A model generated the notes under the pieces. It ran no database searches, had not been told where the DNA came from, and worked only from the letters and a program-made list of their open reading frames with translations. Made by a program: the position numbers and the translations under genes. From sequence record OR757453.1: DNA of 64,000 nucleotides; one strand, given 5' to 3'. How positions within the stretch are numbered: the stretch's first letter is position 1; every line of letters starts with the position of its first letter. Shown here in pieces: positions 40,270 to 49,300 of the stretch. Source of the DNA: Escherichia phage BYEP01.

Positions 40270-41298
<1,029 letters not shown>

Positions 41299-41299
<1 letters not shown>

Positions 41300-41847
41300 T
41301 GAAACAATACCAATTTTTAATTAAAGATATCCTGGAAAATGGCTATGAAACTGATGATCGAACAGGCACAGGAACAATTGCTCTGTTCGGTACTAAATTA
41401 CGCTGGGATTTAACTAAAGGTTTTCCTGCAGTAACGACTAAGAAGCTCGCCTGGAAAGCTTGTATTGCTGAGCTCCTTTGGTTTTTATCAGGAAGTACTA
41501 ACGTAAATGATTTACGATTAATTCAGCATAATTCATTAATTCAAGGTAAAACAGTCTGGGATGAAAATTACGAAAACCAAGCAAAAGATTTAGGATATCA
41601 TAGTGGTGAACTTGGTCCAATTTATGGAAAACAATGGCGTGATTTTGGTGGTGTAGATCAAATTGTAGAAGTTATTGATCGTATTAAAAAACTACCAAAT
41701 GATAGGCGTCAAATCGTTTCAGCATGGAATCCAGCTGAACTTAAATATATGGCATTACCGCCCTGTCATATGTTCTATCAGTTTAATGTGCGTAATGGTT
41801 ATCTTGACCTTCAGTGGTATCAACGATCAGTAGATGTTTTCTTGGGT
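41299..41847 (+). CDS. td: thymidylate synthase, exon 1
   Basis: 183 codons ending FLG at the group I 5' splice site. Confidence 0.9.
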
Positions 41848-42110
41848 TAATTGAGGCCTGAGTATAAGGTGACTTATACTTGTAATCTATCTAAACGGGG
41901 GACCTCTCTAGTAGACAATCCCGTGCTAAATGTGTAGGACTTTGGTTCTACCTAAATGCCTAACGACTATCCCTTTAGGGAGTAGGGTCAAGTGACTCGA
42001 AACGATAGACATCTTGCTTCATCAAGATGGAGATATAGTCTGATCTGTATGGTGACATGCAGCTGGATATAATTCCGGGATAAGATTAACGACCTTATCT
42101 GAACATAATG
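41848..42110 (+). ncRNA. group I self-splicing intron in td, compact, no endonuclease ORF
   Basis: starts TAATTGAGGCCTGAGTATAAGG, contains GGGTCAAGTGACTCGAAACGATAGACA core, ends ACATAATG; 263 nt. Confidence 0.85.
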
Positions 42111-42422
42111 CTTCCATTTAATATTGCATCATATGCTGCATTAGTTCATATTGTAGCTAAGATGTGTAATCTTATTCCAGGAGATTTGATATTTTCTGGC
42201 GGTAATACTCATATCTATATGAATCACGTAGAACAATGTAAAGAAATTTTGCGTCGTGAACCTAAAGAGCTTTGTGAACTGGTAATAGGCGGATTGCCTT
42301 ATAAATTCCGCTATCTTTCTACTAAAGAACAATTGGAATATGTTCTTAAACTCAGGCCTAAAGATTTCGTTCTTAAAGGTTACGAATCACACCCTCCTAT
42401 TAAAGGAAAAATGGCGGTGTAA
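42111..42422 (+). CDS. td: thymidylate synthase, exon 2
   Basis: in frame after splicing: ...FLG|LPFNIASYAALV... Confidence 0.9.
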   Translation, partial: LPFNIASYAALVHIVAKMCNLIPGDLIFSGGNTHIYMNHVEQCKEILRREPKELCELVIGGLPYKFRYLSTKEQLEYVLKLRPKDFVLKGYESHPPIKGKMAV

Positions 42423-42709: not shown

Positions 42710-42989
42710 ATATAAATCCGACTTTGATGTTAATATTCACCGTGGTACATTTTGGGGAAATTACGTCGGTAAAGATGCTGGCAGCCGGGAGGCTGCCATT
42801 GAATTATTCAAAAAAGATTTTATACGTCGAATTAAATCCGGAGAAATAACTAAAGCACATTTAGAGCCTTTACGTGGAATGAGGCTAGGATGCACATGTA
42901 AACCAAAGCCGTGTCATGGTGATATAATAGCTCATATAGTTAACCGATTGTTTAAAGACGATTTTCAAGTTGAGGACTTATGCAATTAA
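42663..42989 (+). CDS. hypothetical protein, possibly DUF4326-like (nrdA.1 position)
   Basis: 108 aa; C-terminal [12 protein letters not shown] motif. Confidence 0.4.
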
Positions 42990-44413
42990 TTAATGTTATC
43001 AAAAGTAGTGGTGTTTCTCAGAGCTTTGACCCACAAAAAATTATTAAAGTTTTATCTTGGGCAGCTGAAGGAACATCTGTAGATCCTTATGAATTATATG
43101 AAAATATTAAATCATATCTCCGTGATGGAATGACCACTGATGACATTCAGACTATTGTCATTAAGGCTGCTGCGAATTCTATTTCGGTTGAAGAGCCTGA
43201 TTATCAATATGTAGCTGCACGCTGTTTAATGTTTGCTCTTCGTAAGCATGTTTACGGGCAATATGAACCACGTTCATTTATTGACCATATTTCTTACTGC
43301 GTAAATGAAGGTAAATATGACCCTGAATTGTTGTCAAAATATTCAGCAGAAGAAATTACATTTTTAGAATCAAAAATTAAGCACGAGCGGGATATGGAAT
43401 TTACTTATTCCGGGGCGATGCAATTAAAAGAAAAATATCTAGTTAAAGATAAAACCACTGGTCAAATTTATGAAACTCCACAGTTTGCATTTATGGCTAT
43501 TGGAATGGCACTGCATCAAGATGAACCTGTTGATAGATTAAAACATGTCATTCGTTTTTATGAAGCAGTATCTACTCGACAGATTTCATTGCCAACTCCT
43601 ATTATGGCTGGTTGTCGTACTCCAACTCGACAGTTTAGTTCATGCGTTGTTATTGAAGCAGGTGATTCGCTGAAGTCTATCAATAAGGCTTCTGCTTCAA
43701 TTGTTGAGTATATTTCTAAACGAGCTGGAATTGGCATTAACGTTGGTATGATTCGTGCCGAAGGTTCTAAGATTAGCACAGGTGAAGTGCGTCATACTGG
43801 TGTTATTCCTTTTTGGAAACATTTTCAGACTGCAGTTAAATCATGCTCACAGGGTGGAATTCGTGGCGGCGCTGCTACTGCTTATTATCCTATTTGGCAT
43901 TTGGAAGTTGAAAATCTTCTCGTTTTGAAAAATAACAAAGGCGTAGAAGAAAACCGTATTCGTCATATGGATTATGGCGTCCAGCTGAATGATTTGATGA
44001 TGGAACGTTTTGGAAAGAACGACTACATTACTTTGTTCAGTCCACATGAAATGGGTGGTGAGCTTTATTATTCTTATTTTAAAGACCAAGACCGTTTCCG
44101 TGAATTATATGAAGCCGCAGAAAAAGACCCTAATATTCGTAAAAAGCGTATTAAAGCCCGTGAACTGTTTGAATTGCTCATGACTGAACGATCAGGAACA
44201 GCAAGGATTTATGTACAGTTCATAGATAATACGAATAACTATACTCCGTTTATTCGTGAAAAGGCACCTATTCGTCAGAGCAACTTGTGTTGTGAAATTG
44301 CTATTCCAACAAATGATGTGAATAGTCAACAAACCCGTTTAATCAAAATTAAGAAGTCGGATGTAGCTAAGTTTTATGAAGCTAATCCTGGCGGTATAAT
44401 TCAAAGCAAATAA
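42980..44413 (+). CDS. nrdA: ribonucleotide reductase large subunit, N-terminal fragment
   Basis: ATP cone; active-site NLCCEIAIPT; ends 28 aa after PTNDVNS in non-NrdA sequence. Confidence 0.85.
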   Translation: MQLINVIKSSGVSQSFDPQKIIKVLSWAAEGTSVDPYELYENIKSYLRDGMTTDDIQTIVIKAAANSISVEEPDYQYVAARCLMFALRKHVYGQYEPRSFIDHISYCVNEGKYDPELLSKYSAEEITFLESKIKHERDMEFTYSGAMQLKEKYLVKDKTTGQIYETPQFAFMAIGMALHQDEPVDRLKHVIRFYEAVSTRQISLPTPIMAGCRTPTRQFSSCVVIEAGDSLKSINKASASIVEYISKRAGIGINVGMIRAEGSKISTGEVRHTGVIPFWKHFQTAVKSCSQGGIRGGAATAYYPIWHLEVENLLVLKNNKGVEENRIRHMDYGVQLNDLMMERFGKNDYITLFSPHEMGGELYYSYFKDQDRFRELYEAAEKDPNIRKKRIKARELFELLMTERSGTARIYVQFIDNTNNYTPFIREKAPIRQSNLCCEIAIPTNDVNSQQTRLIKIKKSDVAKFYEANPGGIIQSK

Positions 44414-45227
44414 AGTACACAGACCGTTAATAATAAATAATCCATAACAAGAGGAAAAGTTATGGATTATTCTAAAATTTACAATAACCTTATTTCTAAA
44501 GCTAAGAATAGAAAATTAGATTGCTATACCGAATCACACCATATTATACCTCTGTGTATTGGCGGTTCTGATACAAAAGAAAACCTGGTAGATTTGACAC
44601 CAGAAGAGCATTACATAGCTCATCAATTATTAGTAAAGATATATCCAGATAATCATAAATTGATATTTGCCGCTAATATGATGTGTGTTTATTCTGAAGA
44701 TAATATTGAACGAAAGAACACCAATAAACGTCATGGGTGGCTTAGAAGAAAATTGGCTATTTCTGTATCTGAAAATAATAAAGGCAAACCGGCTTGGAAC
44801 AAAGGTATTCCTATGTCTCCAGAAGTTAAATCTCGACTTCAAACATCTTGGGTGTTTACATTTCCGGATGGTCATGAGGAAATTCATCGAGGTCTTAACG
44901 AATTTTGTAAAGAGCATAATTTAAATGCATCTGCGATGTCAGCCGTTTGTAAAGGTAAACGGGCGCATCACAAAGGATTTAAGTGTAAGAAATTGGATAA
45001 GATTTCAGAGCTTGATAATTTAGTTTTCGTCAGTAAACCTCATCCAAAGGGATTAAAACCCCATAACTTAATTGCTGTAAAAATAAACGGTATAGAATAT
45101 CAATCAATACATCGAGCATCTAAAGCTTTAGGAATTACTAGAAAAAAGGTAGAAGAATTAAATGAATATTGATTATGAATTTGTAGATGAATTTTACGAA
45201 GATGATGAGTATACTACAATAGAAGTT
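44327..45227 (+). mobile_element. homing endonuclease insertion splitting nrdA
   Basis: about 900 nt between NrdA-homologous segments; contains the HNH ORF; no group I core motifs; stops in all continuing frames. Confidence 0.7.
44462..45172 (+). CDS. HNH homing endonuclease (MobE-like)
   Basis: 236 aa; HNH core ESHHIIPLCIGGSDTKENLVDLTPEEH; AGAGGA RBS. Confidence 0.75.
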   Translation: MDYSKIYNNLISKAKNRKLDCYTESHHIIPLCIGGSDTKENLVDLTPEEHYIAHQLLVKIYPDNHKLIFAANMMCVYSEDNIERKNTNKRHGWLRRKLAISVSENNKGKPAWNKGIPMSPEVKSRLQTSWVFTFPDGHEEIHRGLNEFCKEHNLNASAMSAVCKGKRAHHKGFKCKKLDKISELDNLVFVSKPHPKGLKPHNLIAVKINGIEYQSIHRASKALGITRKKVEELNEY

Positions 45228-46151
45228 ATTGAAAACAGGGGAGAAGTGGGGCTTTGTACCCTTAGCGCATTTGTGTTGGATAACTTCGATTGGCAAGACC
45301 AAGACAAAATTAATGAATTAGCAGAAGTTCAAGTTCGTGCTCTTGATAATCTTTTGGACTACCAAGGATATCCAGTTCCTGAAGCAGAAAAAGCTAAAAA
45401 GCGTCGAAACCTTGGCGTAGGTGTTACTAACTATGCAGCTTGGCTGGCAAGTAACTTTGCTTCTTATGAAGATGCTAACGATTTAACACATGAACTATTT
45501 GAGAGATTGCAGTATGGACTCATTAAAGCATCCATTAAGCTCGCCAAAGAAAAAGGACCTTGCGAATATTATTCAGACACTCGTTGGTCTCGAGGCGAAT
45601 TACCTATCGACTGGTACAATAAAAAGATTGACCAAATCGCAGCTCCAAAATACGTTTGTGATTGGGACGAACTTCGATCTGAACTCAAACAGCATGGAAT
45701 TCGAAATTCTACTTTATCCGCGTTGATGCCGTGTGAATCATCCAGTCAGGTATCTAACAGTACAAACGGTATCGAGCCTCCACGTGGACCAGTCTCTGTT
45801 AAAGAATCAAAAGAGGGTTCCTTTAATCAAGTCGTGCCCAATATTGAGCATAACATAGACCTCTATGATTATACGTGGAAATTAGCTAAGAAAGGTAATA
45901 AACCTTATCTTACGCAGGTAGCTATTATGCTGAAATGGGTATGTCAATCAGCTTCAGCGAATACATATTATGACCCGCAGATTTTTCCAAAAGGAAAGGT
46001 TCCAATGTCTGTAATGATTGATGACATGCTATACGGATGGTATTATGGCATTAAAAACTTCTATTATCATAATACCCGTGATGGTTCTGGTACTGATGAT
46101 TATGAAATAGAAACTCCCAAAGCTGAAGATTGTTCATCCTGTAAATTATGA
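45162..46151 (+). CDS. nrdA: ribonucleotide reductase large subunit, C-terminal fragment
   Basis: aligns with E. coli NrdA from GEVGLCTLSAF to C-terminal CSSCKL; own ATG overlaps the HNH ORF end. Confidence 0.85.
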   Translation: MNIDYEFVDEFYEDDEYTTIEVIENRGEVGLCTLSAFVLDNFDWQDQDKINELAEVQVRALDNLLDYQGYPVPEAEKAKKRRNLGVGVTNYAAWLASNFASYEDANDLTHELFERLQYGLIKASIKLAKEKGPCEYYSDTRWSRGELPIDWYNKKIDQIAAPKYVCDWDELRSELKQHGIRNSTLSALMPCESSSQVSNSTNGIEPPRGPVSVKESKEGSFNQVVPNIEHNIDLYDYTWKLAKKGNKPYLTQVAIMLKWVCQSASANTYYDPQIFPKGKVPMSVMIDDMLYGWYYGIKNFYYHNTRDGSGTDDYEIETPKAEDCSSCKL

Positions 46152-46202: not shown

Positions 46203-46878
46203 ATGAGCACAGTTTTTAATACAAATCCAGTTGATGTTTTAACAGAACCTATGTTCTTCGGTTCAGGTCTTGGAATTGCACGTTATGATATTCAACGACA
46301 TAAGGTATTTGAAGAACTTATTGAACGTTCGCTCTCGTTTTTCTGGCGGCCTGAAGAAGTAAACTTAATGATGGATGCTGCACAATTTAACAAGCTCCCA
46401 GAACACCAAAAATCTATATTTATCAATAACTTAAAATACCAGTCATTGTTAGACTCCATCCAGGGGCGTGCACCATCTGCGGTACTTATGCCATTGCTTT
46501 CAGATCCAAGCCTTGATACATGGGTAGCAACATGGACTTTTAGCGAAACTATTCACAGTCGTTCATATACCCATATCATGCGTAACTTGTTCAATGACCC
46601 TGCTAAGGTATTTGATGAGATTGTACTAGATGAAGCTATCATGAAACGTGCTGAATCTATCGGTCGCTATTATGATGATGTTCTGACTAAAACCCGTGAA
46701 TGGGAAAATGCTAAAGAATTTACAGAACTAGCTAAAGAATCTCCTGATGCTGTTTTTCGTTTAAATCGAGCTATTAAACAAGAAGCCGAAGCTAAACGTG
46801 CTTTAATGAAATCTCTTTACCTCTGTTTGCACGTTATTAATGCCTTAGAAGCTATTCGTTTTTATGTATCTTTTGCGT
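46203..46878 (+). CDS. nrdB: ribonucleotide reductase small subunit, exon 1
   Basis: ends ...RFYVSFA plus one nt at the 5' splice site. Confidence 0.85.
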
Positions 46879-47182
46879 AAAATGCGCCTTTAAACGGTAA
46901 CGTTTATCGAAAACTCCTTTAATTGCTGGAAAGTCCTTTATAGGAAAACTAGCAGCCAAGGTTTTGCTTGCACCTTTAATTAGCATAATATAAATGATTA
47001 TACTTTTAAGAGGATGCACAATTGCAAAGCAAGGTTCAACGACTAGTCTTCGGACGTAGGGTCAAGCGACTCGAAATGGGGAGAATCCCTCTGGGATTGT
47101 GATATAGTCTGGTCTGCATAGTAATATGTAGCAGTTCATAAGAGAACGGGTTGAGAATTAGCGAGCTCAATCGAACATAACG
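46879..47182 (+). ncRNA. group I self-splicing intron in nrdB, compact, no endonuclease ORF
   Basis: 304 nt; core GGGTCAAGCGACTCGAAATGGGGAGAATCCC; ends with G; splicing restores FYVSFACTFNFHKNMEIMEGNAKI. Confidence 0.8.
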
Positions 47183-47685: not shown

Positions 47686-47689
47686 GGAG

Positions 47690-47710
47690 TGGGCCGCAAG
47701 GCCCATTTTA
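47690..47710 (+). terminator. hairpin terminator
   Basis: TGGGCC-GCAA-GGCCCA then TTTTATT. Confidence 0.6.
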
Positions 47711-47712
47711 TT

Positions 47713-49300
<1,588 letters not shown>

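Follow-up and report, generated by a model that had tools for sequence, protein, structure and literature searches.

The td intron of phage T4, together with its endonuclease I-TevI, is the textbook bacterial mobile intron, and a natural allele that lacks the endonuclease records the 'loss' stage of the homing cycle for exactly this pair. The canonical td intron measures 1017 nt in T4 (NC_000866.4), which agrees with the length of about 1 kb given in an initial annotation of the DNA analysed here, and 1016 nt in most relatives. A review assigns the final 20 nt of the I-TevI ORF to P6a and P7 (PMC3073962), and a conflict between translation into P6a/P7 and the function of the ribozyme has been described for T4 (PMC2988022). 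Furthermore, engineered td introns with a shortened P6a have been found to self-splice in vitro (PMC2729099). We focus here on the td intron of Escherichia phage BYEP01 (OR757453.1), which is probably the orthologue of the T4 td intron, with an intact core, from which the endonuclease gene was lost by deletion of the whole P6a loop.

The window, by which we mean the whole 64-kb stretch (64,000 nucleotides) that was analysed, is a segment of a Tequatrovirus (T4-like) genome, with an identity of about 95% to many deposited phages and a perfect match to none. The gene order at the locus is frd, a small ORF, td, nrdA.2-like and nrdA.1-like ORFs, nrdA and nrdB, and td is interrupted at the FLG|LPFN site with the same splice junctions as in T4, T6, RB3 and others (Table 1). 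Read directly, the intron begins with TAATTGAGGCC at 41848 and ends with ...GAACATAATG at 42110; its two ends, TAATTGAGGCC and ACATAATG, match those of the T4 td intron exactly. The last codons of exon 1, GTT TTC TTG GGT, run up to 41847, and the frame then meets a TAA at the first bases of the intron, while joining 41299-41847 to 42111-42422 in silico gives an uninterrupted Td of 286 aa, 274 of which are identical to those of T4 Td. No ORF of at least 32 aa is present on the + strand inside the 263-nt intron, and a tblastn search with T4 I-TevI as the query found no I-TevI coding sequence in the whole 64-kb window (best E = 0.34); the intron-encoded endonuclease gene by which a homing intron is recognised is absent from this td intron. 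The initial annotation had placed an intron of 263 nt at the FLG|LPFN site and had seen in it a td-type 5' end and catalytic core and no I-TevI-type ORF. These boundaries (41848-42110) hold to the base, the core is corroborated by ends that match T4, by a match to the Rfam model RF00028 and by a full set of helices, and the lack of an endonuclease ORF is borne out by both searches.

Table 1. Coordinates of the td gene of the window, its intron and the elements within the intron.
Feature	Position	Strand	Description
td (thymidylate synthase) exon 1	41299..41847	+	ends ...VDVFLG
P1	41842..41861	+	exon UUGGGU (41842-41847) with internal guide GCCUGA (41856-41861); Rfam alignment, manual structure
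Group I intron, td-type, assigned to IA2	41848..42110	+	263 nt, no endonuclease ORF; Rfam, MFE fold, covariation
P3	41886..42009	+	41886-41891 with 42004-42009; encloses P4, P5, P6, P6a, P7.1 and P7.2
Extra G relative to the 262-nt alleles (PD112, CE1, 215Ecol030PP)	41932..41932	+	predicted pair with C41952
P6a hairpin	41934..41951	+	GUAGGAC-UUUG-GUUCUAC; alignment to T4, WL-3 and RPN226; hairpin fold
I-TevI frame remnant, 22 nt	41942..41963	+	T TGG TTC TAC CTA AAT GCC TAA = ..W F Y L N A stop
P7, guanosine-binding helix	41965..42040	+	41965-41969 with 42036-42040; pseudoknot with P3; 100% in 19 sequences
Terminal G (omega G) of the intron at the 3' splice site	42110..42110	+	...ACATAATG conserved in all td alleles
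td exon 2	42111..42422	+	LPFN... through the stop codon; first codons CTT CCA TTT AAT

The sequence marks the intron as the orthologue of the group I intron (subgroup IA2) in T4 td and as a complete ribozyme that is predicted to splice. RF00028 matches 41838-42062 over model positions 1-253 of 253 with 64.1 bits (E = 6e-14), well above the gathering score of 50, a positive answer to the covariance-model check that the initial annotation had proposed. The model ends at P9, and the last 48 nt of the intron (P9.1, P9.2 and the 3' end) were placed by hand. When the published architecture of the T4 td intron (P1-P6, P6a, P7, P7.1, P7.2, P8, P9, P9.1 and P9.2) is mapped onto the window, every base pair is a standard pair and all helices are intact, and an unconstrained minimum-free-energy fold gives back all of the nested helices, P2-P9.2. 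The 5' splice site lies at a wobble pair in P1, U41847-G41856, and the P7.1 and P7.2 hairpins read UCCC-UUUA-GGGA and GGGUC-AAGU-GACUC, respectively.

This structure was also examined in an alignment of 19 natural ORF-less relatives, consisting of seven td alleles from deposited phages and 12 introns from viral and metagenomic contigs. There, 91.8% of the cells pair, as against 34-44% when the partners are slid by 1-3 columns, and changes on both sides are seen in 51 of the 76 pairs (five of six in P3); the observed values were reached by none of 500 shuffles. P3, P4, P6, P7, P9 and P9.2 are each 100% paired, P7.1 reaches 97% and P7.2 96% in one part and 90% in the other; the lower figures for P1, P6a and P9.1 (64-84% for P9.1, where the hairpin is probably poorly aligned) are to be read as poor alignment of hairpins of unequal length. 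One could still regard the intron as a decayed relic that has lost splicing, with td a pseudogene in this phage, given that the base of P6a is altered by the G added at 41932 and by the replacement of A by C at 41952. We consider this very unlikely, with every helix in place, both the U-G pair at the 5' splice site and the terminal G present, a P6/P6a hairpin that is still able to fold (-8.5 kcal/mol), and two open exons that keep 96% identity to T4 Td and contain no frameshift or stop.

The difference in length from the canonical intron lies in P6a. In the canonical intron, the segment flanked by the invariant GTGCTAAAT and TAAATGCC is TGTAGGACT-[754 nt]-TTGGTTCTACA; its counterpart in the window is GTGTAGGACT-TTGGTTCTACC. 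What is missing from the window is exactly the P6a loop, that is, 754 nt comprising the promoters/operator of I-TevI, its ribosome-binding-site hairpin and codons 1-239. The alignment to the T4 td intron that the initial annotation had called for thus puts the end points of the deletion exactly at the P6a loop, with the junction between 41941 and 41942, and P6a is now closed by a UUUG tetraloop (41941-41944). The 22 nt of the I-TevI frame that remain do so because they double as the 3' strands of P6a and P6 and contribute to J6/7, and this structural role is now the only one that they have. Within them, the P6a 3' strand TGG TTC TAC encodes W240-F241-Y242 of I-TevI. What the deletion has left is a perfect loop of 4 nt in which nothing of the 5' part of the insert survives. 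Its end points have no more than 1 nt in common, in contrast to those of the 315- and 445-nt classes described below; no simple slippage mechanism therefore accounts for it, and slipped mispairing between direct repeats is not supported as its route. At the base of P6a, position 41952 is C in the window and A in T4. We considered G41932 as a compensation for this A-to-C change, which it is at most weakly, the gain in energy being only 0.3 kcal/mol.

The initial annotation had named two possibilities without choosing between them, an intron that is naturally without an ORF and one left over from the deletion of an endonuclease gene. The retained I-TevI codons and the identity of the core favour the second, and loss of I-TevI, as against an intron that was never invaded, is very probably what the comparison of sequences records. 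First of all, the core is 99% identical to that of an ORF-containing allele, the WL-3 intron, from which it differs at 2 of 242 nt; it is identical to the T4 td intron at 233 of 242 nt, with nine differences. Second, and most tellingly, the 3' strand of P6a, TGGTTCTAC, consists of codons for I-TevI residues that are conserved across the family, also in free-standing homologues; a never-invaded intron is not expected to carry such codons, and loss is therefore favoured. The Pfam family PF20987, the DNA-binding domain of I-TevI, covers I-TevI residues 192-242, and the aromatic motif of the I-TevI tail is kept in homologues down to 35% identity; three free-standing homologues, whose genes neighbour uninterrupted td genes, end in ..HWNWFYYEDD.. 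(TGG AAT TGG TTT TAT), ..KYNYEYIV-stop and ..KFPEFKFI-stop, and the argument from conserved residues assumes that such free-standing homologues are not descended from intron-borne copies. Third, in ORF-bearing relatives the 5' strand of P6a is complementary to the last codons of each endonuclease's own gene, as in L082, where UAUGAAAAUAU pairs with GAA UAU UUU UAU AUA, and in L081, where UGUAU(C)GGCC pairs with GG UCA UAC A. Finally, the P6a hairpins of 67 unrelated ORF-less introns that have the same flanking core come in 45 different sequences, completely different from that of the window, and identity to the I-TevI frame by chance is very unlikely.

It is against these points that we weigh a primordial td intron which was never invaded, I-TevI having entered the P6a tetraloop later, in the T4 lineage, so that the window would represent the 'empty site'. 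Such a site would also show a clean loop of exactly 4 nt, no remnant of an insert and microhomology of at most 1 nt, and we count these features against deletion. Short-P6a ORF-less relatives are moreover the rule in viral metagenomes, as the 67 matches with their 45 hairpins illustrate, other clean td alleles have P6a stems unrelated to that of the window, and group I introns are ancestrally ORF-less in published views (PMC3073962). Faced with a 3' strand that spells conserved I-TevI residues and with a core so close to that of an ORF-containing allele, we nevertheless regard a never-invaded intron as unlikely and retain loss of I-TevI as the preferred reading.

The ORF-less introns of viral contigs offer several observations of their own. 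The 67 introns share the motif CCCGUGCUAAAU-hairpin-UAAAUGCCNAACGAC and come from 60 viral loci of IMG/VR (L012-L071); some contigs (e.g. L048 and L026) hold three or four copies of the motif within about 3.5 kb or less, with four within 1.5 kb in L048, and among the motif-bearing introns of these loci only that of L040 lies in a td gene. In L040 (the same as L072-L074), L080 and L081, an intron 77% identical to the td intron occupies a second td site, 18 nt upstream (..QQR|SVDVFLG..), with an I-TevI-like ORF in L080 and L081 and without an ORF in L040, where it is 265 nt long. The P6a of L040, UGUAGAAA-GCUU-UUUCUACA, still spells TTC TAC ATA AAT GCC TAA, and we read L040 as a parallel loss of the endonuclease in which the last codons were retained. 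A scan of IMG/VR and JGI for short-loop P6a hairpins with a T4-type UGUAG...CUAC base, a pattern that covers the form of the window, returned only this L040-type intron, at its different td site, and the junction of the window was not found in IMG/VR or in the JGI metagenomes.

At three loci (L077, L078 and L079), free-standing GIY-YIG genes of the I-TevI family lie immediately beside uninterrupted thymidylate synthase genes, an arrangement in keeping with the proposal that mobile introns arise when a free-standing endonuclease combines with an ORF-less intron. No group I motifs were found near td at these loci, where the tblastn matches to Td are single and uninterrupted. A scan at the Rfam gathering threshold is unreliable as a test for the absence of an intron: RF00028 missed the real L040 intron, which has all core motifs, and the lack of an RF00028 match is therefore not proof that an intron is absent. 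For this reason, the absence of an intron at the three loci rested on tblastn and on the missing core motifs.

Shortened td introns are also found in deposited phages. With the intron as the query, 39 phage records had both halves close together, and 36 of these 39 rows, representing about 30 isolates, are td introns of 250-446 nt; the comparison set comprised about 259 records with a td-type intron match at an identity of at least 90%. The shortened introns sort into seven classes. The junction of the window, GGACT|TTGG, with its UUUG loop, is present in introns of 262 nt in the Escherichia phages vB_vPM_PD112, vB_EcoM_CE1 and 215Ecol030PP. Two classes of 254 nt have either the unrelated P6a GTTC-TTTT-GAAC (N2, 236Ecol005PP, HMD-9 and CJY920) or CAGC-AGTA-GCTG (GRNsp7), and a class of 250 nt has GTTC-GAAA-GAAC (SEA1, a Gelderlandvirus). 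The remaining three, of 315 nt (Klebsiella phage EI, with a deletion between GGAAT repeats), about 320 nt (HP3 and some 14 others) and about 445 nt (e11/2, G28, F1, FN and FL18, with a deletion between CATTTTAAA repeats), keep fragments of I-TevI, and two of them end in short direct repeats. With three such partial-deletion classes, loss of the endonuclease gene in the P6a loop is therefore recurrent, which also favours loss of I-TevI in the intron of the window.

The allele of the window is new in sequence, its best match being 97% identical, and it is a mosaic, with a P6a like that of the 262-nt class and a P8/P9 variant like that of N2, GRNsp7 and the ORF-containing WL-3. It is a new allele of a kind that deposited genomes already contain, apparently without remark. 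The records of PD112, CE1 and 215Ecol030PP annotate td only as two CDS, and a reminder for annotation is that td in such phages is one spliced gene and not two CDS. In a full-text literature search of incomplete coverage, no paper explicitly described a td intron that is naturally ORF-less, which is no proof that such introns have gone undescribed. ORF-deleted td introns are common in vectors, and in one phage record the annotation of the td intron rests on its similarity to a ClosTron plasmid, which might raise the suspicion of an artefact of assembly or of the laboratory, either a chimera with a vector-derived, ORF-deleted td intron or a collapsed assembly. The same junction in three independently isolated phages, the nine core positions that differ from T4, a contiguous phage context about 95% identical to many isolates and a search of a plasmid collection for a vector-derived copy, which gave no match, all speak against such an origin, which we regard as extremely unlikely.

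The shared junction raises a further question, namely how often the deletion arose. An identical junction occurs in three contexts at the base of P6a, U..A in PD112, U..C in 215Ecol030PP and GU..C in the window, as read at 41932 and 41952 of the window and in L001, L003 and L084-L087, and a single recent deletion needs extra steps to explain this. A GU..C base is normal in the ORF-containing td introns of Gelderlandvirus/Karamvirus (Melville, ABTNLPp2, EcL8g and Ursula); it is these introns, and not the ORF-containing ones of Tequatrovirus, that the state of the window, an extra G together with C, matches. Among about 230 records, no ORF-containing parent with the exact 3' arm of the window, GGTTCTACC, was found. 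The simplest reading of the sequences would be one deletion, followed within the ORF-less lineage by the A-to-C change at 41952 and then by the insertion of G at 41932; alternatively, patchy gene conversion or recurrent deletion may lie behind the shared junction.

Several other elements of the window deserve mention. A second group I intron lies in nrdB at 46879-47182 (Rfam match 46862-47131, 68.7 bits); by splice-site reading it is 304 nt long, and joining the exons restores a NrdB of 392 aa. It is without the region of the truncated I-TevIII ORF of T4, whose nrdB intron is 598 nt long, so that neither of these two introns of the window has an endonuclease gene. In its P9.2 and at its 3' end, the nrdB intron is almost the same as the td intron of SEA1. 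Furthermore, nrdA is in two pieces (42980-46151), with residues 1-449 of T4 NrdA at 42980-44326 and residues 452-754 at 45240-46148. The insert between them (about 44327-45239) holds an HNH/NUMOD ORF of 236 aa (44462-45172), 45% identical to the N-terminal part of T4 MobE, and a search for a group I intron in this insertion gave nothing relevant, even at E values of up to 1; the insert looks like a free-standing homing endonuclease that splits nrdA at the active-site region. We take this split to be similar to the split nrdA of Aeromonas phage Aeh1, and two nrdA CDS are annotated in several deposited Tequatrovirus genomes. Between frd and td, which abut directly in T4, there is an ORF of 68 aa (41093-41299) with no Pfam match; extra small ORFs at this place are also present in 215Ecol030PP and Melville. 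Finally, a 144-aa ORF with a weak GIY-YIG match (47689-48123) follows immediately on nrdB, where T4 has denA (endonuclease II), and is probably an ordinary gene.

On the basis of what is established for group I splicing and for homing by I-TevI (PMC2988022, PMC5009752), we infer that the intron self-splices in two guanosine-initiated steps and is spliced in vivo. The td pre-mRNA would fold into P1-P9.2, guanosine would attack after U41847, which forms the U-G wobble in P1, and the freed exon 1 would then attack after G42110. The ligated exons would encode a normal thymidylate synthase of 286 aa, and their junction is expected to read ...TTCTTGGGT|CTTCCATTT. Without I-TevI, the intron would be unable to home by itself and would be inherited vertically or by ordinary recombination, and ribosomes would no longer translate into its P6a and P7. 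The intron still splits the recognition site of I-TevI, and the td allele of the window should therefore be immune to the I-TevI of co-infecting phages.

Read in this way, the window intron represents the step of 'degeneration and deletion' that is predicted for the homing cycle; it is confirmatory and leaves current understanding unchanged. The mildly new point is that codons derived from the endonuclease persist in a structural strand although the gene to which they belonged has been lost. At least three other clean ORF-less alleles coexist with the window allele in Tequatrovirus populations, which suggests long-lived residence. With a little less than even confidence, we propose that the ribozyme has permanently adopted endonuclease codons as P6a structure, the opposite of the published 'core creep' idea, and that ORF-less td introns are long-lived residents and not brief intermediates of decay; perhaps they are kept for the immunity to I-TevI that they would confer. 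Full-length introns, three partial deletions and four clean ORF-less forms together make up a natural series, which could be used to test the rate and route of endonuclease gene loss, a possible retention of ORF-less introns through blocked I-TevI cleavage, and any gain in splicing once translation leaves the ribozyme.

Compared with the known systems, the intron of the window shares with the I-TevI-encoding T4 td intron the host gene, the FLG|LPFN site, the helices P1-P9.2, including P7.1 and P7.2, and the P6a stem. It differs from it in being without the 754 nt of the P6a loop, and with them I-TevI, its promoters/operator and the means of homing, and in two changes to the base of P6a, the extra G (41932) and C in place of A (41952). 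The introns of PD112, CE1 and 215Ecol030PP have the same junction and UUUG loop and are 96-97% identical to it overall; they are, on the other hand, 1 nt shorter, with a T4-like P8 and P9, and PD112 keeps the A at the base of P6a. The other shortened td introns, of 250 to about 445 nt, have the site and core of the window intron, and I-TevI is absent from them or truncated; the 250- and 254-nt alleles differ in their 4-bp P6a stems, which are unrelated to that of the window, and the 315-445-nt alleles in retaining fragments of the I-TevI gene. Engineered ORF-deleted td introns have a shortened P6a loop, as the window does, but these were man-made from T4, whereas the intron of the window is natural and diverged. 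The nrdB intron of T4, with its defective I-TevIII remnant, is likewise an intron that has outlived its endonuclease (PMC2988022, PMC5009752); it keeps a truncated ORF, whereas in the td intron of the window the loss is complete except for the 22 nt that double as ribozyme structure.
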